A stretch of DNA of 44,392 nucleotides, the filler included, from an uncultured Methanosarcinales archaeon (GTDB taxonomy: Archaea; Nanobdellota; Nanobdellia; Woesearchaeales; JACPBV01): the NCBI GenBank assembly GCA_964492935.1. It is 12 parts of 12 records of this genome, joined end to end, with 100 filler letters (N's around TTAATTAATTAA, not from the genome) between each part and the next. Parts side by side here need not be neighbours in the genome. Positions count along the whole stretch, not along the records: positions 1 to 6,366 come from CAZBLF010000042.1; 11 more parts are not named here. One strand, written 5' to 3'. Position 1 is the first letter of the stretch. Every line of letters starts with the position of its first letter. Below the pieces are notes generated by a model that made no database searches, was not told the origin of the DNA, and worked only from the letters and a program-made list of their open reading frames with translations. This document shows, piece after piece, positions 1 to 43,827 of this stretch. The translations under genes were made by a program, and so were the position numbers.

Positions 1-163
1 CGATGTTAAATACAATAAAATTTCCATTTCTTAGACGATAAAAACGGAGGAGTTCAGTGCTACGCACATATAGTCTCCTTCGGAGAAATTTATTTTTAAT
101 TGGGGGAGTTCTTAACTAATTTGGGAGTTCCTAAAATCTATGGAGGGGGCAAGAAACAATTAA

Positions 164-172
164 ATTTATTAA
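164..172 (+). promoter_or_regulatory. Archaeal TATA box for ORF 197-943
   Basis: TTTATTAAC about 25-33 nt upstream of ATG 197; no SD, so probably leaderless. Confidence 0.45.
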
Positions 173-196
173 CATTAGAAGAATATCTATTAAAAA

Positions 197-943
197 ATGG
201 TACTAAACTGGTTTTTCAAAGATGAATTTGAACAGTTTTATAGCCGAGTTGAGAGACTACAAAAATTTCTCAGAATCGTTGACAAAGAACTACTTATTGA
301 CCATTTTGTAGAATTACGCAGACACTTCAGACAAATAAAAAGAATCCTGCCAAAACTAAATCGTCTATACCAAGAAGAACTTAAAACTGTTGAACATATT
401 CCAGAATCGGGCTACAAAGAAAAACTCAAAAAATTCTCCGTTGATTTAGAGAAAGAACTGAGTGACTTAGAAAACTGGGTAAATAATGCGCTTGCTCTAG
501 TAGCGGAAATCCTCAAAATAAGAGTATTGACACAAGTACAAGAACAAAAGCAGAAACTTAAAACAATAATCAATCATATTACCAATATCTTAATCAAAGC
601 ACAACGAGATGCTTTTGAGTTAGTCAAATTAGAGATAGCTTGGAAAAAATCAATCAAGAAAGCACATAAAAAGCCAATCACAAAAATATCAGTCGTTGGA
701 AAACTCAATAACGGTTGGCGTTTGAGTGATATTCAAAGTGTCGTTATTGATCTGGGTGGAGTTGTTGAGCCAAATCCTGGAGGCACACATCCATACAAAA
801 TTGTATTTTCCGGACATCGTTCAATTCCTTTAGCAGAATCAACTCCGCCATTTATACTCGTGAGAGAAATCAGTTCAGCAACTGGAACGGATAATAAAAT
901 TCTGATAGTGAGTTTTTCTCAGGGAGAATTAGTCGCTGCTTAA
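197..943 (+). CDS. Hypothetical protein: N-terminal coiled coil plus C-terminal HicA-like domain
   Basis: 248-aa ORF; heptad-rich N-terminus; C-terminal GGVVEPNPGGTHPYKIVFSGHRSIPL resembles the HicA G-S/T-H beta-hairpin pattern (by eye). Confidence 0.6.
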   Translation: MVLNWFFKDEFEQFYSRVERLQKFLRIVDKELLIDHFVELRRHFRQIKRILPKLNRLYQEELKTVEHIPESGYKEKLKKFSVDLEKELSDLENWVNNALALVAEILKIRVLTQVQEQKQKLKTIINHITNILIKAQRDAFELVKLEIAWKKSIKKAHKKPITKISVVGKLNNGWRLSDIQSVVIDLGGVVEPNPGGTHPYKIVFSGHRSIPLAESTPPFILVREISSATGTDNKILIVSFSQGELVAA

Positions 944-1303
944 ATATTTGCTTCTGAAAGCCTCATATTCTCTCCTTTTCCTTGCTGATACAAATGGCAA
1001 TAACGGGCCCATATCCTGTAAATTGCCCGCTTCATCACATAAAAGATAAACCTTGTCTTCTCCAGCTTTCATTCTTTCTAAATCCTGAGCATAAGTGTCT
1101 TGGTTAAAAGTAATAAGAACTTCATTTCCTTGCCCAGCAATGGTTCGAAATGCTTCTTTAACAACTTCAACTTCCAGCTGAGAAAGCGAACTTAAATTAA
1201 CTTCAGAATCTCCTATTGCTGTCTGTAATTGACTTCTCAAATATCGTAAGCTTTGATGTTGTTCATTATAAAATTTTAGTTTATCTTTTGGAATTTCTTT
1301 CAT
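929..1303 (-). CDS. Hypothetical protein, convergent with and overlapping the 3' end of ORF 197-943
   Basis: 124-aa ORF; TTTTTAAATA TATA-like box on the minus strand at 1329-1338. Confidence 0.65.
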   Translation of the reverse strand: MKEIPKDKLKFYNEQHQSLRYLRSQLQTAIGDSEVNLSSLSQLEVEVVKEAFRTIAGQGNEVLITFNQDTYAQDLERMKAGEDKVYLLCDEAGNLQDMGPLLPFVSARKRREYEAFRSKYLSSD

Positions 1304-1669
1304 GTTATATTGAATAGAAAATCATACCTATTTAAAAAGCTTTGGTTCATTTACTACCAAACAATAGTATTTCTGTTTCTCGCCTCCCTTAAATTCATGT
1401 TCTCAAAGTATGCTGACGCTCAAAAGAAAGAACGGAACTCCCCTTAATGTACTAACTAAAAGAGCCTTCGGCTAGGATAAAACAAACTCCCCCCTGCTAC
1501 TTGTTCTTGATGTAACGCTTCGCTTTCTAGATAGAACTGAACTCCCCCGGTGCTTCGCACATATACACTCCCTGCGGTCGAATTAATGGGAAATGGAAAT
1601 TTTACTTCTTCGCTCCACTTCGTTCCGCTCGACCACGTTGCACTCTCCCTACGCTTCGCTTCGGTCGGG

Positions 1670-1752
1670 GTATTTAACAGCGATTATCCGGAAAATCCCT
1701 TGCAGGAATTTTCCCAAATTGGCTACGCCAACTTCGCATAGTTGCGATGTAA
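1670..1752 (+). other. attC-like recombination site with branched terminal structure
   Basis: R''-like ATTTAAC (1672-1678); GCGATTAT pairs with ATAGTTGC (two G:T); inner hairpins GGAAAATCCCT-TGC-AGGAATTTTCC (1690-1714) and TTGGC-TAC-GCCAA (1719-1731); ends GATG|TAA. Confidence 0.65.
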
Positions 1753-2289
1753 AGAGACCATCGAATCACCGTGTGCACCTAAGACCATGCCCGTAACCGA
1801 ACTAGGCGAAACCTTTAATTCAGCTGCAATGAAATTGCGTAAGCGAGCACTATCCAAAACACCAGCCATCCCCACAACCTTTTCCTTAGGCAAACCAGAC
1901 TTCTTCAAAAACAGGTACGTCATCACATCTAAGGGATTAGTAACAATAATACAGATAGCGGAAGGAGCATGTGACTTCACAGATGCTGCAATCGAAGACA
2001 TAATGGAACTATTCTTCGCAAGCAAATCCTCCCGAGACATACCAGGTTTTCTAGCAAGTCCAGCAGTAATCACGATGAGTTCGCATCCAGCAAGACTACT
2101 ATAATCAGTACTGCCCGTTATCGTAGTATCAAACGGAAAAAGAGGACTACAACACATCATATCCAATGCCTTACCCACAACAGCATCATCGATATCAATC
2201 ATCACGATTGAAGAAACAATATTCTTTGAAGCGAGAATAAAAGCCGCAGTAGCACCTACCTGCCCTGCACCAACGAAACCAACTTTCAT
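1750..2289 (-). pseudogene. mdh: Malate dehydrogenase (LDH-like MDH), 3'-truncated after about 180 aa
   Basis: GAGQVG Rossmann motif, GLARKPGMSREDLL, NPLD, GMAGVLDSAR, GAHGDSMV. Homology stops at Leu codon 1752-1750, immediately at the attC-like site; normal length is about 310 aa. Confidence 0.85.
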
Positions 2290-2355
2290 GATCGCAGGCA
2301 AGATACAAAATATTTAAATCTATGGATTTTTATATAAAATGAAGATCCTCAGTAC

Positions 2356-2619
2356 ATGTCTAAATGCCCTGAAGAAAAAATATATAGCTTATCAGAAGCA
2401 AGGAAGATTGCCAATATCTCAAAGAGACTTGCAGAAACCATAGATCATGTAGTGAGAAGGGGATATCCGCTGCATACTATACCCAGATTGCTGGACCAAA
2501 TGACCGAATACCCCGATGTCTTTAGACCACAAATCATACCGTATCTTCATAGATTACAAGAAAACGGTAGAAAAACGTATAACCTAGAAAACTTTCTAGG
2601 TAGCACGCACCTAGATTAA
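2356..2619 (+). CDS. Hypothetical protein
   Basis: 87-aa ORF with TTTATATAA box about 25 nt upstream; stop abuts the stop of the convergent gene. Confidence 0.55.
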   Translation: MSKCPEEKIYSLSEARKIANISKRLAETIDHVVRRGYPLHTIPRLLDQMTEYPDVFRPQIIPYLHRLQENGRKTYNLENFLGSTHLD

Positions 2620-2826
2620 CTACCAATCAAGTCCTTCTAAGTCTGCTACAACCGCATCCAAATCATCAGCAAGCTCTTCGGCTAAAACGGCATTTTCCTC
2701 AGTGTCAGAACCTACCTGATTAACAAGAGCATCGCCACTTCCACTATCTGTAGCAGGTTGAGTTTCTTCAGGAACTGCACATCCGACAATAAATAAAAGC
2801 ACCAATACTGCTAGGATTCTTTTCAT
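2620..2826 (-). CDS. Small acidic lipoprotein
   Basis: MKRILAVLVLLFIVGC lipobox-type signal; overlaps the stop of the upstream gene (ATGA). Confidence 0.7.
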   Translation of the reverse strand: MKRILAVLVLLFIVGCAVPEETQPATDSGSGDALVNQVGSDTEENAVLAEELADDLDAVVADLEGLDW

Positions 2827-4310
2827 TCTGCATCCTCCTCCGATTCTTCGGAATCTTCCTCTTCATCCTCAACCAGTTCCTCATCCTCAGCACCCTCTAA
2901 GGTAGCATCGTGCTCTCGCAACCCATGGGAAATCTCCACCAACACGGAATGCGCCTCCTTAAGCTCAGACTGTGACTGCTTGTGCAACTCCTTCGCTTTT
3001 CGAATCATCTCACTCAAAGCATCTCGTTCCTCTGCAGCTACAGTAGATCCCCGTTTCGAAGCAACTTCATCCAATAACGCAACCGATTGCTCATGCAATG
3101 ATTTAGCTTCGGCAACATGCCCACTAAACGTTTCAACTAAAGTATCCAAATCCTCGACCGTTACTTCGGATTCCTCAATCCGTGCAAGAACCTTCTCCAA
3201 TTTGACCTCAAGCTGACGAGCTCGTACAATCGTTGCTTTTGATTCTGCAACAACCACACGCGCCGCACCTGCCTTTGCAACATGCGAAATTCTTTTCCAC
3301 ACCGAAGCAATTTCTTTGGCAGCCGCTCGCAATTCTTCTTTCGTAGTAGCCGCATCTGCAAGCACTAGCGCCTTAGTAACAGACCCAGCCGCATCCGTAA
3401 GTTTTGCGACTAACTCAGCAGCACGCTCCTCTTCAATTAGGTCATTCTCCTCAATCTTGGAAAGGAGCTTCTCGATATGATTCAATATACGCTCACCAGA
3501 CTTTGCAACATGCTCCTTAGCCTTGGCTAGAATCTCCTCTTCAAGTGCATCACAATCCTCAGTACATTCAGCAAGTTTCTTCTTAACATCCTCAAACACC
3601 TTTCCACGATCCTCGCCCTCAGTTTTCAAAGACTCATACCTGACTTTAGCCTCCTCATAGCGTTTCCTAGCCTGTTCTAGTTTATCAGCCGCGACATCAC
3701 GTTTCTTGACCAGGTCGTCAGCTCTCATAATCTTCAAACGAGAAATCTTCTCCTTTACTGCAGCAGCATCCTCTGATGCAAGAATTCGCTTAGCGTGTCC
3801 ACGATCAAGCTGAGCTATCTTCCGAAGCTCATCGGTAGTAAACTCATCCTTTGTAAACGCAAATGCCCGACGAGCTCTTCCTGTATCAGAGATGTGCTCA
3901 TCATCCATACGAGGAGAACATTTCTTTCTACAATCTTCCTTTTCAACTCCACTCTCAACACATTTCTCTAAACAAGTATCAACTCTAGCTGCAATAGTAA
4001 CCGGAACCGGTCTAGCCTCTCGAGTAACATGCGTATCAATATCACATTTTTTAGCACAATCCTCTTTCCCAACACCAGAATCTAAACATCTATCCATACA
4101 ACTCCGTTCACTAATAAGAACAGGCTTAGGAACCGACCTTGCTTCACGTGTAACCTCATCAGAACCAGAATCATCCTTGACATCATCAGAACTAGTAGTT
4201 CCATCACCCTCCTTTGTAGCATCAGAATCTTTACTCTCATCAGCAACCACAAAAGAAACAGAAGAAACCACAAACAACATAACCATCAATAACACGAAAA
4301 CTTTTTTCAT
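2823..4310 (-). CDS. Secreted coiled-coil protein with two Cys-rich repeats
   Basis: Signal peptide; CxxxC-x9-CxxxC repeat twice, each preceded by VTREARxVP; long helical region; acidic tail; GAGGTGA SD; homologous start at 44240. Confidence 0.85.
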   Translation of the reverse strand: MKKVFVLLMVMLFVVSSVSFVVADESKDSDATKEGDGTTSSDDVKDDSGSDEVTREARSVPKPVLISERSCMDRCLDSGVGKEDCAKKCDIDTHVTREARPVPVTIAARVDTCLEKCVESGVEKEDCRKKCSPRMDDEHISDTGRARRAFAFTKDEFTTDELRKIAQLDRGHAKRILASEDAAAVKEKISRLKIMRADDLVKKRDVAADKLEQARKRYEEAKVRYESLKTEGEDRGKVFEDVKKKLAECTEDCDALEEEILAKAKEHVAKSGERILNHIEKLLSKIEENDLIEEERAAELVAKLTDAAGSVTKALVLADAATTKEELRAAAKEIASVWKRISHVAKAGAARVVVAESKATIVRARQLEVKLEKVLARIEESEVTVEDLDTLVETFSGHVAEAKSLHEQSVALLDEVASKRGSTVAAEERDALSEMIRKAKELHKQSQSELKEAHSVLVEISHGLREHDATLEGAEDEELVEDEEEDSEESEEDAE

Positions 4311-4383
4311 TCAAATCACCTCAAAGTTGATATCTAAGGTAACCAGTATTCTCTATTTAAAAACTTTTGTAACTTCTACCGAA

Positions 4384-4734
4384 TTAAAAGCTACCAAAAA
4401 GAGCTCGCAACCGAGTAACGATCTGTACAGGAGCATTCATAATAAGTTCTTCAGTAAACCGAATCACCCGAATCCCATCCCAACCACAACTAATATCCTT
4501 AAAATGATCCTTCCACGCATTCCGATGCCAATACCTTCCATCAGCTTCTAAAGCAATCTTTCGAGAAGGAAAATAAAAGTCAAAGATGCGAACAGAACCA
4601 TTACTCAACAGTTTCTTGTATTCACAATAAAAATCCTTACCCTCAACAAACCCCAACGAAAGCAAAAAAGACAACATCTTCCTTTCCAATAGAGTACGCT
4701 TCCCCAACCGAGAACTAAAACTACCGTATCTCAA
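4384..4734 (-). CDS. DUF559 / Vsr-like (very-short-patch-type) endonuclease
   Basis: DFYFPSRKIALEADGRYWH and GIRVIRF motifs; close homologue at 43834-44178. Confidence 0.8.
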   Translation of the reverse strand: MRYGSFSSRLGKRTLLERKMLSFLLSLGFVEGKDFYCEYKKLLSNGSVRIFDFYFPSRKIALEADGRYWHRNAWKDHFKDISCGWDGIRVIRFTEELIMNAPVQIVTRLRALFGSF

Positions 4735-4925
4735 CCTTTACTCCACCACCTACCTCATACGCAACACAACCTCTTCTATTAAACATTCATGAAACACCTC
4801 AATTTCCAAAAAAATGATGAAACCCATGCATAATCCCTTTCTCTCGGTGCGTTGCAGCCGCATCCACCAACGGAAACGAATATGAGAGCCTCACACAAGG
4901 AAAGTTAAAAATTGAGGTGAAAACC

Positions 4926-5153
4926 ATGAATAAAACAAAAATAGTGAATTTAGTCGAGAGAGATTTTACGACTCTCGCAAACCTTGAGCGCAGCATTCAG
5001 TTTGCGATCAACTCGAGGAAAGGTAGGCAATACCAATACAAGGTAATGCATGCTGCCTTTAAGCGCACGTGTGATATTCTTCTGAAGAGAAGAAAATACA
5101 TTGCGAAACAGCTCGGTCGCAGACTAGAGCTGATAAAAGACCCTTCAGAGTAA
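4926..5153 (+). CDS. Small basic hypothetical protein (75 aa)
   Basis: GAGGTGA SD at 4914-4920 before ATG 4926; K/R-rich; convergent with the recombinase. Confidence 0.6.
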   Translation: MNKTKIVNLVERDFTTLANLERSIQFAINSRKGRQYQYKVMHAAFKRTCDILLKRRKYIAKQLGRRLELIKDPSE

Positions 5154-5165
5154 GGGTCTTTTTTA
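5133..5165. terminator. Bidirectional hairpin between convergent genes
   Basis: AAAAGACCCTT-CAGAGT-AAGGGTCTTTT with A/T tracts on both sides. Confidence 0.6.
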
Positions 5166-6041
5166 TTCCCCCAGCAGAGCAGGAATACCTTTCGTATGAA
5201 AATCATGCGGCAACCGAGCATAATCCAAAGTCGTCTTGCGATCAGCATGCCCCATCAATTTCTGGATAGTATCGACATCAACACCTTTCTGCATGAGATG
5301 CGTAACACAACTTGCACGCATCATATGAGGATACACGTGCATATGAATACCGGCTTTCTTAGCTGCAGTATCAACAAGTGCTTGCGCAGTTCTTCTTGTA
5401 AGGTGTCCACCAAAGCTGTTCTCAAACAAATAGACAGATGAGCGTTTTCGGGAAGCCAAATAAGACCTCATATCCGAATACAATCGAGCAGGCAGCGGCA
5501 CATACCTATCTTTATTCCCCTTTCCACGATAAATAAACAACAATCGAGCAACATCATGGATATGACCTACCTTAATCTTAACACATTCACCAACCCGAAT
5601 CCCCGTTTCATACAACAATCGAATCAACAATCGATGTTTCTCCGATCGAGTACGATTAATCATCATCCGAATCTCCTCAGTGGCCAACACCCGAGGCAAA
5701 CTCCTAGGAATCTTCGCCCTCTTAACACCAACAAACAATTTCTTCCCCATGAAACCGCTAAAATAAGATTTCAATGCACTCACTGCAAGATTAACAGTAC
5801 GCTCCTTTTTGTGCCGATCCAATAGATGAAGAAGATACCTCCTAATATCCGCAGAAGTAACAAATTTAGGCTGCTTCTTTACAAAATCCATAAATTTACC
5901 CACAGTCCAAAGATAAGAATCAATAGTATTTCTACTAAACCCCTGTAAACGCAAGTCATCCACAAAACCCGCAAACCTCTCCTTCAACCTATCCTTTTGT
6001 CTAATTCCCTTTTCTCGTTTTACCTGATGAAATGTGTTCAT
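5163..6041 (-). CDS. Tyrosine recombinase, XerA/XerD-like (292 aa), copy 1
   Basis: N-terminal SAM-like domain (LRLQGFSRNTIDSY); catalytic R (GIRVGE), K (GKGNK), HxxR (HMMR), GH and Y (TTLDY). Start moved to ATG 6041 using the GAGGTGA SD and conservation with copy 2. No IntI-type insertion. Confidence 0.92.
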   Translation of the reverse strand: MNTFHQVKREKGIRQKDRLKERFAGFVDDLRLQGFSRNTIDSYLWTVGKFMDFVKKQPKFVTSADIRRYLLHLLDRHKKERTVNLAVSALKSYFSGFMGKKLFVGVKRAKIPRSLPRVLATEEIRMMINRTRSEKHRLLIRLLYETGIRVGECVKIKVGHIHDVARLLFIYRGKGNKDRYVPLPARLYSDMRSYLASRKRSSVYLFENSFGGHLTRRTAQALVDTAAKKAGIHMHVYPHMMRASCVTHLMQKGVDVDTIQKLMGHADRKTTLDYARLPHDFHTKGIPALLGE

Positions 6042-6077
6042 TCCAATCACCTCATACATATATGACGAAGAACTCAG

Positions 6078-6116
6078 CTTATATACCCTGCGCCCGCATC
6101 TGGCAAGTGGCAAGTG
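6078..6116 (-). promoter_or_regulatory. Recombinase promoter: TATA box plus tandem CACTTGCCACTTGCCA motif
   Basis: GGGTATATAAG and CACTTGCCACTTGCCA are conserved in copy 2 (42902-42912 and 42874-42889). Confidence 0.55.
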
Positions 6117-6134
6117 CAACATGATTTTGCCGCC

Positions 6135-6238
6135 TTAACACCTTTCAAGCAAGAATTTAGCCGTCTCAGACTGGACACTGCCAAATGGCAAGTGCCCCTG
6201 AAACACCAAAACAGCGCTTAAAAGATGTTAAATACAAT
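6135..6238 (+). other. Recombinase-proximal foldable attachment site (attI-equivalent), copy 1
   Basis: TTAACACCTTTCAAGC (6135-6150) pairs 14/16 with GCTTAAAAGATGTTAA (6216-6231); central hairpin GGACACTGCCA-AA-TGGCAAGTGCCC; GTTAAAT at 6227-6233. Confidence 0.65.
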
Positions 6239-6312
6239 TTTTGAAAATGCCTAAGAATAGAAAGGGGGCTAGACTTTCCACAATTTATATAAAACCTAAA
6301 GTTTTGAATATT

Positions 6313-6349
6313 AATGAAGCTCCCAGCCGCCCCAAGGGGCGGGGTATCT
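6313..6349. mobile_element. GC-rich hairpin resembling an IS200/IS605-family or palindromic-element end, at a contig break
   Basis: AATGAAGCTCCCAG-CCGCCCC-AA-GGGGCGG-GGTATC; the contig ends 17 nt later. Confidence 0.35.
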
Positions 6350-6366
6350 AGTTAAAGCTTGCAAGC

Positions 6367-23764: not shown

Positions 23765-24060
23765 GGCCTGAAGGGATTCCCACCTAAGGGTTTCACCCTA
23801 TAGGTACCCGTGCACTAGATGTAGCATTTCGCTTTGCTCAACGCTACTAGGACAATTGAGAAGAGAAAAATGGGCCTGAAGGGATTCCCACCTAAGGGTT
23901 TCACCCTATAGGTACCCGTGCANNNNNNNNNNNNNNNNNNNNNNNNNNNNNNNNNNNNNNNNNNNNNNNNNNNNNNNNNNNNNNNNNNNNNNNNNNNNNN
24001 NNNNNNNNNNNNNNNNNNNNNNTTTGCTCAACGCTACTAGGACAATTGAGAAGAGAAAAA
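23765..24060. repeat. 108-bp tandem repeat containing 17 nt of the tRNA-Arg 3' end and hairpins (gap-interrupted)
   Basis: GGCCTGAAGGGATTC at 23765, 23873 and in the tRNA; unit tail repeated at 24023-24060. Confidence 0.7.
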
Positions 24061-24155
24061 TGGGCCTGAAGGGATTCGAACCCTCGGTCTACAGCTTAGA
24101 AGGCTCTGGCGGAACATAATGTTCTGTCGCCCTATCCAGGCTAGGCTACAGGCCC
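24061..24155 (-). tRNA. tRNA-Arg(TCT) with a 20-nt intron at a non-canonical position (24106-24125)
   Basis: GGGCCTG/CAGGCCC acceptor stem; TTCGAAT T-loop; ACAGC-CTTCTAA-GCTGT anticodon arm after removing AGAACATTATGTTCCGCCAG. Confidence 0.9.
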
Positions 24156-24236
24156 ATGATGTTGAAAGTCGTGAGTGTTTATATAAATCTTTTCTCAATG
24201 GAAACGGTTATAAAGAGAGTTGTGACTTTCTAGGTT

Positions 24237-42855: not shown

Positions 42856-42948
42856 GAGGGGGAAATTGGGTTTCACTTGCCACTTGCCAGGTGGGGGCGC
42901 AGGGTATATAAGGTGAGTTCTTCGCTTTAGTTGTATGAGGTGATTGGG

Positions 42949-43827
42949 ATGAACGTATTTCATCAGGTAAAACGAGAAAAAGGGATTAGACAGAAGGATA
43001 GATTGAAGGAGAGGTTTGCTGGATTTGTGGATGACTTACGATTACAGGGATTTAGTCGGAATACTATTGATTCTTATCTTTGGACGGTTGGGAAATTTAT
43101 GGATACTGTTTCGAAGCCGGCGAAGTTTGTTACTTCCTCAGATATTAAGAAGTATTTGTTGGTGTTGCTTGATCGGAAGAAGGCGGAACGTACGGTTAAT
43201 TTGGCACTTAGTGCGTTGAAGGCTTATTTTGGTGGATTTATGGGGAAGAACTTGTTCAGGAGTATTAAGCGGGCTAAGATTCCTCAGAGTTTACCTCGTG
43301 TGTTGGCAACTGAGGAGATTCAGATGATGATTAATCGTACTCGATCGGAGAAGCATAGGTTGATGATTCGATTGTTGTATGAAACGGGGATTCGTGTGGG
43401 TGAATGTGTAGTGGTGAAGGTTGATCACATCCATGAGGTGGCTAAACTGTTGTTTATTCAGCGAGGTAAAGGGAAAAAGGATCGGTATGTACCGTTGCCG
43501 GATGGATTGTATTCGGATATGATGTCGTATCTGGCTTCCCGAAAACGTTCATCGGTCTATTTGTTTGAAAATAGTTTTGGTGGACATCTTACTCGAAGAA
43601 CGGCGCAAGCTGTTGTAGATGTTGCTGCGAAAAAGGCAGGGATTCACATGCACGTTCATCCGCACATGATGCGAGCTAGTTGTGTTACTCATCTTATGCA
43701 GAAAGGTGTTGAAATTGAGAAAATTCAGAAGTTGATGGGGCATGCAGATCGGAAAACGACTTTGGGTTATGCGCGATTGCCGCATGATTTTCACACTCGA
43801 GGTATTCCTGGACTGTTGGAAGAGTAG
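42949..43827 (+). CDS. Tyrosine recombinase, XerA/XerD-like (292 aa), copy 2
   Basis: Colinear close homologue of 5163-6041; all catalytic residues intact. Confidence 0.92.
   Translation: MNVFHQVKREKGIRQKDRLKERFAGFVDDLRLQGFSRNTIDSYLWTVGKFMDTVSKPAKFVTSSDIKKYLLVLLDRKKAERTVNLALSALKAYFGGFMGKNLFRSIKRAKIPQSLPRVLATEEIQMMINRTRSEKHRLMIRLLYETGIRVGECVVVKVDHIHEVAKLLFIQRGKGKKDRYVPLPDGLYSDMMSYLASRKRSSVYLFENSFGGHLTRRTAQAVVDVAAKKAGIHMHVHPHMMRASCVTHLMQKGVEIEKIQKLMGHADRKTTLGYARLPHDFHTRGIPGLLEE

Follow-up and report, generated by a model that had tools for sequence, protein, structure and literature searches.

A candidate integron-like gene cassette with mini-hairpins of one polarity, in an array beside a XerA-type recombinase gene of a Woesearchaeales archaeon

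Related systems and the locus studied

For the recombination of folded single-stranded DNA, integrons serve as the model system, and they are thought to need a specialised domain of the integrase. Here we describe the same architecture with a plain Xer-type recombinase, at positions 1–6366 of a 44,392-nucleotide stretch of DNA (the window) from an uncultured archaeon of the order Woesearchaeales. The non-coding parts of this locus carry small hairpins that share one polarity: their C:G-closed triloops read T-N-C on the strand that runs away from the recombinase gene (the top strand). On the bottom strand they are therefore C-GNA-G, including the exact heptamer GCGAAGC. The heptamer is biased 81 to 1 by strand in related regions, and the sites of such arrays occur in 61 of 401 sampled genomes of the order. 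In our judgement the chances are about even that the hairpins are conserved non-coding pieces of the framework of a gene cassette in an integron-like array, the bottom strand of which would fold during recombination.

The recombination sites of integrons (attC) served as a standard of comparison, with the following criteria: an R'' box RYYYAAC and an R' box GTTRRRY, an imperfect dyad of 57–141 nt, a bottom-strand fold and extrahelical bases. Integron cassette arrays with attC sites have been reported also in Archaea (Ghaly et al. 2022, PMC9668308), and Data S1 of that study lists attC clusters without IntI in about 17 Nanoarchaeota genomes. Those clusters may be the sites that we describe here; our site motifs, searched on both strands, have 0 matches in the text of the supplement, which gives no attC sequences. 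Apart from this study, we found no literature on XerA-linked arrays or on module M, the two-hairpin unit treated below.

As in integrons, a tyrosine recombinase gene stands divergent from an array of cassettes with co-oriented sites, and a simple site of the attI type lies beside it. The sites are imperfect palindromes with TAAC towards the 5' end and GTTA towards the 3' end, the crossover would fall at G|TT, the bottom strand folds better, and the cargo consists of accessory and defence genes. Set against the attC criteria, the sites measure 82–155 nt and contain a 2-nt bulge; TAAC and GTTA are fixed by the way in which the sites were collected, and the other positions fit the consensus partly. 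Unlike in integrons, the array recombinase lacks the IntI-specific domain around patch III and scores as XerA, so that we speak of an integron-like array and not of a canonical integron. In the same way, the statement of the earlier note on this DNA that the bottom strand is the one that integrons recombine is better taken as an analogy than as membership. Further differences are that R'' directly adjoins L'', the 2-nt GA bulge being confined to one arm, and that unpaired CCCAAAT and ACTTC are conserved. Cassette genes of integrons are mostly co-oriented with attC and transcribed from a shared promoter, whereas here they are often antisense to the site (8 of 12; 4 co-oriented). Many cassettes also possess long, conserved frames in which module M and G-run repeats lie; to our knowledge no integron has such frames.

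DNA sequences of the C-GNA-G type, such as d(GCGAAGC), form unusually stable triloop mini-hairpins. With the anchor hairpin excluded, the bottom strand of the related regions carries exact GCGAAGC 81 times and GCGTAGC 34 times, and C:G closes 71 of 84 triloops in H2, the second hairpin of module M. Unlike the mini-hairpins, 12–14 copies of H2 have TTT loops, that is AAA on the bottom strand. By sequence alone, the hairpins of the bottom strand correspond to this type.

Elements that exploit Xer recombinases are known as well, namely IMEX and the dif modules on Acinetobacter plasmids. They share with our arrays a Xer-family recombinase, modules bounded by inverted copies of the site, and accessory genes gathered beside it. 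In our arrays the recombinase-proximal site is a plain TTAA-N6-TTAA. However, dif acts as a duplex, while the cassette sites described here are branched palindromes of 82–155 nt with strand-asymmetric wobbles and loops.

Sites and strand asymmetry

The sites separate the genes in the arrays and are a commoner repeat than module M. We collected 32 distinct sites, 82–155 nt long, which have one common architecture: NNNTAACA, a 10-nt arm, 21–51 variable nt, CCCAAAT, a hairpin, ACTTC, the complementary 10-nt arm, GA and TGTTA. A strict pattern for the 3' half of the site was found in 61 of the 401 sampled genomes (a count that takes in the unpublished G005, G145 and G261) and gave 0 control matches.

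The two strands of these sites are not equivalent. In the 10-bp inner stem (the L box) the 32 sites have 295 Watson–Crick pairs, 17 A:C pairs on top, 2 G:T pairs on top and 6 other combinations; counted over the 22 distinct arm pairs, A:C on top outnumbers G:T on top by 10 to 1. Mismatches in the inner hairpin comprise 3 A:C on top and 0 G:T. The bottom strand has the better predicted stability in 32 of 32 sites, with a mean gain of 2.4 kcal/mol under DNA parameters and 7.1 kcal/mol under RNA parameters. The excess of A:C on top, which the earlier note had read from several stem mismatches as G:T on the bottom strand, holds for the L boxes of the sites; in module M the two kinds are equally frequent just past the stems (6 vs 6), which gives no information on the strand.

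Loops are biased in the same direction. Where the inner hairpin has a simple loop (13 cases), that loop is always TTC, TAC or TGC. For a wider count we used 128 regions around module M, 65,006 nt in total, each read in the direction of its M copy and with the anchor hairpin left out. Among their 665 triloop hairpins with a stem of at least 4 bp, 199 are T-N-C and 46 are G-N-A, so the count by strand over homologous flanks that the earlier note had proposed gives a strong T-N-C bias. Distinct C:G-closed hairpins are divided 72 to 6, and at the level of heptamers GCTTCGC occurs 81 times vs once for GCGAAGC, and GCTACGC 34 times vs once for GCGTAGC. In the whole genome of the window, GCTTCGC and GCGAAGC are balanced (49 vs 51). 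The biased hairpins cover many positions and several sequence subfamilies. As far as sequence can tell, the bottom strand is well supported as the strand that would fold.

Two observations concern unusual sites. Collapsed sites with abutting arms (ATATAACAGGAATTCCGATGTTAAAT) are found at L061:5620–5700 (G010:C11) and L058:4860–4900 (G011:C24); they could reflect natural deletion of the hairpin interior or collapse of a palindrome during assembly. At L058:4700–5040 (G011:C24), two cassettes stand head to head. The arms that meet at their junction belong to different subfamilies, whereas the two ends of any one cassette correspond to each other, which indicates that the matching unit is the cassette and not the junction.

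Anatomy of the cassette in the window

Positions 1–6366 are one entire contig (C42) of a 1.15-Mb assembly of 57 contigs; the remainder of the window consists of further small contigs joined by Ns. The labels of related DNA and a tRNA long enough to contain an intron indicate an archaeon of the DPANN group. The earlier note had treated the region as a cassette, and it is indeed cassette-like, with an attC-like site. Positions 1–1749 quite plausibly represent a single cassette of the array. It opens with the core TGTTAAAT and a left frame (module M, composed of H1, ATATA and H2, and G-run repeats), followed by two convergent genes, a right frame with mirrored repeats, a second module M in the same direction and an attC-like site of 88 nt. 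The features are as follows.

1–13 (+): start of the cassette, where C-GA closes the preceding site and the R' core TGTTAAAT follows (4–11); the same 15-mer lies at 6224–6238 beside the recombinase gene, and the sequence fits the GA-TGTTA end of the 32 sites
16–30 (+): TAAAATTTCCATTTC, inverted-repeat partner of 1590–1604; 15 nt, 100% complementary, the pair covarying by subfamily in other genomes
45–56 (+): G-run motif CGGAGGAGTTCA, inverted partner of 1538–1549 (repeat search and flank alignment)
57–98 (+): left copy of module M, with H1 GTGC-TAC-GCAC (57–67), ATATA (68–72), H2 TCTCC-TTC-GGAGA (74–86) and AAATTTATTTTT
100–160 (+): three G-run repeats, GGGGGAGTTC (102–111), GGGAGTTCC (123–131) and GGAGGGGGC (142–150), directed at the 248-aa gene
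197–943 (+): cassette gene, 248 aa, without family match; relatives in 3 other genomes (E <= 1e-37)
929–1303 (−): cassette gene, 124 aa, convergent with the 248-aa gene, without family match
1427–1549 (+): right frame, with three C-run repeats AACTCCCC at 1436, 1485 and 1540, directed at the 124-aa gene
within 1427–1549 (+): mini-hairpins of the right frame, AGCC-TTC-GGCT (1463–1473) and GC-TTC-GC (1517–1523)
1550–1585 (+): right copy of module M, with H1 GTGC-TTC-GCAC (1550–1560), ATATA and a bulged H2 (ACTC-CC-TGC-GG-TCGA)
1590–1604 (+): GAAATGGAAATTTTA, inverted-repeat partner of 16–30
1653–1659 (+): heptamer GCTTCGC, GCGAAGC on the bottom strand (81 vs 1 by strand in related regions)
1669–1756 (+): attC-like site, joined to the mdh gene from 1750
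site, 5' parts: R'' ATTTAACA (1672–1679), L'' GCGATTATCC (1680–1689)
site, middle: variable hairpin (1690–1714, containing CCT-TGC-AGG at 1698–1706), CCCAAAT (1713–1719)
site, inner hairpin: TTGGC-TAC-GCCAA (1719–1731, conserved across sites), ACTTC (1731–1735)
site, 3' parts: degenerate L' GCATAGTTGC (1736–1745), GA (1746–1747), TG (1748–1749)
1723–2289 (−): malate/lactate dehydrogenase gene (mdh), cut after residue 180; homology stops at 1750, the G|T of the site
5163–6122 (−): XerA-like tyrosine recombinase gene, without the extra domain of IntI
6218–6238 (+): simple recombinase-proximal site, TTAA (6218–6221), AAGATG and TTAAAT (6228–6233); GATGTTAAATACAAT is shared with window 2–16, and the layout recurs in 5 further loci

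The contig begins with CGATGTTAAAT, the end of a preceding site. From the sequence of the cores, the crossover G|TT would fall between 5 and 6 at the start of the cassette and between 6227 and 6228 at the recombinase-proximal site.

The two flanks are diverged inverted copies of each other (alignment score 39 vs a mean of 21.7 in 300 shuffles; sd 3.6, maximum 38), with nested inverted arms at 1–13/1670–1682, 16–30/1590–1604 and 45–62/1532–1549. Module M departs from this mirror symmetry, as both copies (57–98 and 1550–1585) are on the + strand. The G-run repeats, which are similar to GGGGAGTTC, face inwards at both ends of the cassette. Five copies of GGAGTTC lie in the flanks; the genome as a whole, with both strands counted, has 132. 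AGCCTTCGGCT is present in 15 of the 128 related regions, in 14 of these 15 upstream of H1.

The GGGGAGTTC-like repeats, at 102–150 (+) and 1434–1549 (−), number 2–3 per side and lie about 50–130 nt upstream of the inward-facing gene; they likewise occur upstream of the GmrSD gene in a related array (L213). Such repeats might serve the cassettes as operators or promoters.

Small hairpins in the window

The earlier note had listed eight small hairpins in the flanks. All eight occur exactly as written and at the coordinates given, and their minus-strand loops are indeed GAA, GTA or GCA. The 16-mer GTGCTWCGCACATATA, which it had described as a direct repeat, is found in the 1.15-Mb genome only at 57 and 1550, and its argument that the register does not fit RNA UUCG tetraloops holds. 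The item at 1517 fares worse as a conserved hairpin, as 43 of 57 related copies have no stem of at least 4 bp there. Most of the listed hairpins (the module at 57–86 and 1550–1560, and the items at 1463, 1517 and 1653) lie outside the attC-like site, and two of the eight are copies of one repeat.

We also enumerated all perfect triloop hairpins in the flanks (1–196 and 1304–1750) with stem cut-offs of at least 3 bp and at least 4 bp, which leaves out the two GC-TTC-GC items with their 2-bp stems. The lower cut-off gives 20 hairpins, of which 6 are T-N-C and one is G-N-A (79–87, overlapping the hairpin at 74–86), and the higher one gives 6, of which 5 are T-N-C. The whole genome holds 4318 triloop hairpins with a stem of at least 4 bp (3.75 per kb), with 322 T-N-C and 285 G-N-A and hence no general loop bias; about 2.4 hairpins and 0.18 T-N-C would be expected in 643 nt.

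Short palindromes are common, and the TTC or TAC loops might simply have been picked out by a reader. In favour of such a chance origin, two of the items have stems of 2 bp only, clusters of three hairpins of the same class exist elsewhere in the genome, and single hairpins are no better than shuffles. However, the unselected count gives 5 of 6 T-N-C compared with 7.5% in the genome, and compensatory changes and conservation extend over more than 100 loci. Chance was rejected on the covariation, the loop bias in the 128 regions, the recurrence of the site in 61 of 401 genomes and the heptamer ratio of 81 vs 1, and we find it scarcely credible.

Individual mini-hairpins have predicted energies of −2.4 to −5.5 kcal/mol, several of them no better than those of shuffled sequences. 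The nearest-neighbour parameters that we used contain no bonus for C-GNA-G loops. The significance of the hairpins rests on the comparative data and not on the window alone.

Distribution and covariation of module M

Module M is a unit of about 40 nt with two hairpins and covarying stems. It is the flank DNA, and not the two cassette genes, that matches 11 of 13 other genomes of the family (unpublished G005 and G013 included), often several times each. The pattern of M occurs 22 times in 9 of 14 family genomes, compared with 3 times for the reversed control. An exact 20-mer of M was found in 117 stretches of a collection of species-representative genomes, in 127 distinct copies; the matches are labelled mostly Woesearchaeota, Nanoarchaeota or Pacearchaeota, and a few carry labels of other groups, taken as given.

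The third pair of H1 switches from G:C to C:G (GTGC/GCAC to GTCC/GGAC). H2 has 28 different 5' arms, and a perfect stem of at least 4 bp is found in 70 of 122 distinct copies vs 419 of 2440 shuffles. Its loops are TTC in 35 copies, TTT in 12–14 (two parses) and TAC in 13, with a closing C:G pair in 71 of 84. These covariation figures come from custom scripts.

Module M lies 50–150 nt outside the attC-like site, is absent from small cassettes of the same arrays and is sometimes doubled. In each of five large genomes it occurs at one locus with 1–3 copies (2–3 in four of them), and multiple copies always share an orientation. Because of this restriction to one locus per genome, we rejected the idea of a dispersed MITE or REP-like repeat.

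The palindromes of IS200/IS605 ends and of REP/RAYT systems are recognised as single-stranded DNA, and, as here, strand-specific hairpins are directly repeated at both ends of a segment. The hairpins might accordingly be the ends of an IS200/IS605-type or REP-like element moved as single-stranded DNA by a Y1 HUH transposase. Indeed, like IS200/IS605 ends, the paired M copies within a cassette are repeated directly on one strand, and the genome of the window has one Y1 transposase gene (G000:C16:1666–2010, −). That gene is unlinked to the array, though, and Y1_Tnp (PF01797) was not found in any of the four other genomes that carry M and the array, one of them closed. As the cassettes contain no transposase either, and M keeps to one array per genome, such an element is very improbable.

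Another alternative sees in M a cassette-borne transcription insulator (a terminator, a promoter or both) unrelated to recombination, the hairpins of which would count only as stems of a terminator. M, which contains ATATA, has a T-rich run behind it, TTTATATA takes the position of M in the recombinase-proximal copy of the window, and G-run repeats stand upstream of inward-facing genes at both cassette ends, all of which would suit such a role. However, the polarity of M equals that of the site in 32 of 32 pairs, independently of neighbouring genes; M is missing from small cassettes; the right-type M has no T run behind it; and the distance from M to the next start codon varies (129, 114 and 81 nt in three loci). 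We consider this alternative quite unlikely as an account of the hairpins. For M itself, we rank a role accessory to bottom-strand folding first and insulation of transcription second.

Recombinase, polarity and cargo

A tyrosine recombinase gene adjoins the array and is divergent from it in 6 of 6 loci (G213, G214, G215, G217, and C42 and C57 of the window). The core TGTTAAAT and a left-type frame lie about 100–260 nt upstream of this gene in all six, with two exceptions in detail: C42 (6218–6238) has no H1 there, and L214 has GTTAGTT instead of GTTAAAT. The proximal sites have TTAA-N6-TTAA in common. The recombinases are 252–273 aa long, or 319 aa with an N-terminal extension in the window. 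Their best family is NF040815 (XerA_Arch), with 197–228 bits against a cut-off of 220. The integron-integrase model TIGR02249 gives 145–183 bits (cut-off 265) in two stretches, skipping about model positions 183–238. In the closed genome G213, no uninterrupted match to the XerA model other than the array-linked recombinase reaches E <= 1e-5.

These results bear on a further alternative, ordinary recombination of double-stranded DNA of the Xer/dif type, in which the palindromes would be protein-binding sites or by-products of repeated recombination and no single-stranded fold would form. The assignment to archaeal XerA, the sole uninterrupted match in a closed genome, the simple TTAA-N6-TTAA core of the proximal site, the existence of short collapsed sites such as ATATAACAGGAATTCCGATGTTAAAT and the inverted repeats at the cassette ends all speak for it. 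Against it, the stems covary freely (22 L-box arm pairs, 28 H2 arms), which suits base pairing better than read-out by a protein, and neither the ratio of 10 vs 1 between A:C and G:T nor that of 81 to 1 between heptamers has a reason in duplex DNA. Sites of 82–155 nt with internal branches also far exceed dif, which has 28 bp (11 + 6 + 11; PMC8371274). On balance we hold a purely double-stranded process to be unlikely.

Within arrays the sites are co-oriented, pointing away from the divergent recombinase gene in 6 of 6 loci, and M is on the same strand as the site in 32 of 32 pairs. By comparison, the gene just upstream of the site runs in the direction of the site in 4 cases and against it in 8. 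All 8 genes of one array are on the top strand, and in three arrays most genes are on the bottom strand. These data support the conclusion that the polarity of hairpins and sites follows the recombinase gene, not the cassette genes.

In relatives, the cargo includes genes for type I restriction-modification (R-M), GmrSD, an AlwI-type enzyme with methylases, HEPN, ArsR with a transporter, and ABC transporters. The system may thus shape the defence repertoires of small-genome archaea.

An array of about 20 kb (L213; G213:C1:838000–857999) lies in a closed chromosome of 1.84 Mb beside its only intact XerA-family gene. It carries type I R-M, GmrSD, AlwI-type R-M and AAA genes, and thus forms a defence island made up of cassettes.

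In the window, the recombinases encoded at 5163–6122 and 42931–43827 are 86% identical and have the same upstream site, and mdh is 85% identical between window 1752–4128 and the matching part of contig C38. The assembly thus contains two versions of one region, perhaps because the bin mixes two related strains or through duplication.

DNA or RNA as the folded molecule

Bottom-strand folding leaves two candidates for the molecule that folds. In the alternative to DNA, the folds would act in RNA: bottom-strand transcripts would carry processing, stabilising or termination hairpins between cassettes, and the G:U pairs would be ordinary RNA wobbles. It is in keeping with this that most genes are on the bottom strand in three arrays, that the bottom strand is also the more stable one with RNA parameters at 32 of 32 sites, that in the left-type M AAATTTATTTTT follows H2, and that the other strand has a run of T5 behind the G-run motif.

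On the other side, the polarity of site and M is constant within arrays in spite of gene orientation (4 co-oriented vs 8 anti-oriented), even where all 8 genes are on the top strand, and it tracks the recombinase gene in 6 of 6 loci. The stems are nearly without G:U, which would be unusual among RNA families, and GCGAAGC is known as a stability motif of DNA, not of RNA. No Rfam family matches: at gathering score the whole window gave only a tRNA (24061–24155), and at E <= 5 positions 1–2400 gave only two chance-level snoRNA matches inside the mdh gene. We regard the RNA alternative as rather unlikely.

We infer, then, that the folded molecule is DNA, as the polarity tracks the recombinase, the stems are nearly free of wobbles and the favoured heptamer is that of a stable DNA mini-hairpin. 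The earlier note had proposed selection on the folded bottom DNA strand; its bottom-strand part is borne out by the wobbles (10 vs 1) and the stability (32 of 32), while its DNA part would follow only from this reasoning.

If the fold is DNA, the hairpins would give a direct sequence read-out of the strand used, the XerA-like protein would be a candidate enzyme for archaeal attC clusters without integrase, and simple oligonucleotides could serve as substrates for testing the choice of strand.

Proposed mechanism

The folding of the bottom strand during cassette recombination, which we put forward as the role of these hairpins, starts from the observed anatomy, conservation, covariation, polarity, wobble bias and recombinase linkage, and from one G|T junction with a truncated gene. 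The bottom strand would fold when single-stranded. In the folded attC-like site, the R box, the 2-nt bulge and the L box would jointly mimic the double-stranded TTAA-N6-TTAA core that lies by the XerA-like recombinase gene. The recombinase, which presumably acts on the folded site, would exchange strands at G|TT, and cassettes would move. The GNA mini-hairpins in and beside the site would make the bottom strand fold fast and stably.

Several points weigh against this reading. The pattern used to collect the 32 sites fixes TAAC and GTTA, so the conformity of the R boxes is by construction. Both G:T-on-top pairs of the L box belong to the degenerate site of the window itself. The copies are related, and the counts therefore overstate the number of independent events. 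Because cassette genes are often on the bottom strand, many arrays would produce a bottom-strand RNA that folds in the same way, and the recombinase is without the extra domain that integron integrases have around patch III. The stems of M are almost wholly Watson–Crick, with neither G:T nor A:C inside, and at the first pair past them these two kinds are equally frequent (6 each), so that M carries no information on the folding strand. For the mini-hairpins, nearest-neighbour energies fail to separate the strands (−5.5 vs −5.2 and −2.4 vs −2.4 kcal/mol). Clusters of 3 same-class hairpins within 450 nt exist at about 6 other loci of the genome, and the right flank by itself is thus not exceptional. 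Finally, neither an excised circle nor an empty site was seen in four metagenomes.

A broader proposal is correspondingly tentative. Archaea of the DPANN group might move gene cassettes in an integron-like manner by means of an ordinary XerA-type recombinase. Bottom-strand folds of the sites would mimic TTAA-N6-TTAA, and C-GNA-G mini-hairpins, including those of a portable two-hairpin module, would help the fold and set the folding strand. The IntI domain would then not be needed, because the cassette sites would themselves fold into a mimic of the core of the enzyme. If true, single-strand cassette recombination would either have arisen here independently or be preserved in an ancestral form, and the attC clusters without IntI reported in Nanoarchaeota would be explained.

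The mdh junction, the cassette genes and neighbouring features

The attC-like site ends with GCGATG at 1749, homology to mdh begins at 1750, and nothing left of 1750 is homologous. An intact mdh gene on contig C38 (G000:C38:5785–6702) is 85% identical and has a different sequence left of the junction point; its neighbours are syntenic with window 1752–4128. The break thus coincides with the G|T of the core, the crossover point of integrons, and the junction looks like the product of recombination between a cassette site and a secondary site in a housekeeping gene. The possibility that the right flank is a decayed tail of mdh was rejected, since tblastn with the intact copy of C38 found nothing left of 1750 (all E > 0.2).

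The 248-aa and 124-aa proteins have no match in Pfam, NCBIfam or PADLOC. Their convergent arrangement is conserved in three genomes of other families (G207:C77, G201:C7 and G118:C3), and G207 carries three copies of the small (124-aa) gene; the pair looks like a two-gene module. In the flanks of the pair in these three genomes there are no G/C-rich T-N-C hairpins, and the G-run motif is absent save for one AACTCCC match (G118). The hairpins thus belong with the framework of the array and not with these genes.

We compared contigs of four metagenome runs with positions 1–6366. Summed depth over the repeat parts is 5–15 times as high as over the unique ones, and the repeats are where contigs end. 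Three joints among the metagenome contigs have sides of 21–26 letters, under the reliability mark of the tool used.

Two more features of the window were noted. A gene for a DUF559 protein (Vsr-like endonuclease fold) lies at 4384–4734 (−), between the mdh region and the recombinase gene. A 97-nt tRNA at 24060–24156 (−), which ARAGORN calls 'tRNA-Stop, anticodon tta' and Rfam calls tRNA (49.6 bits), is probably a misparsed intron-containing archaeal tRNA.

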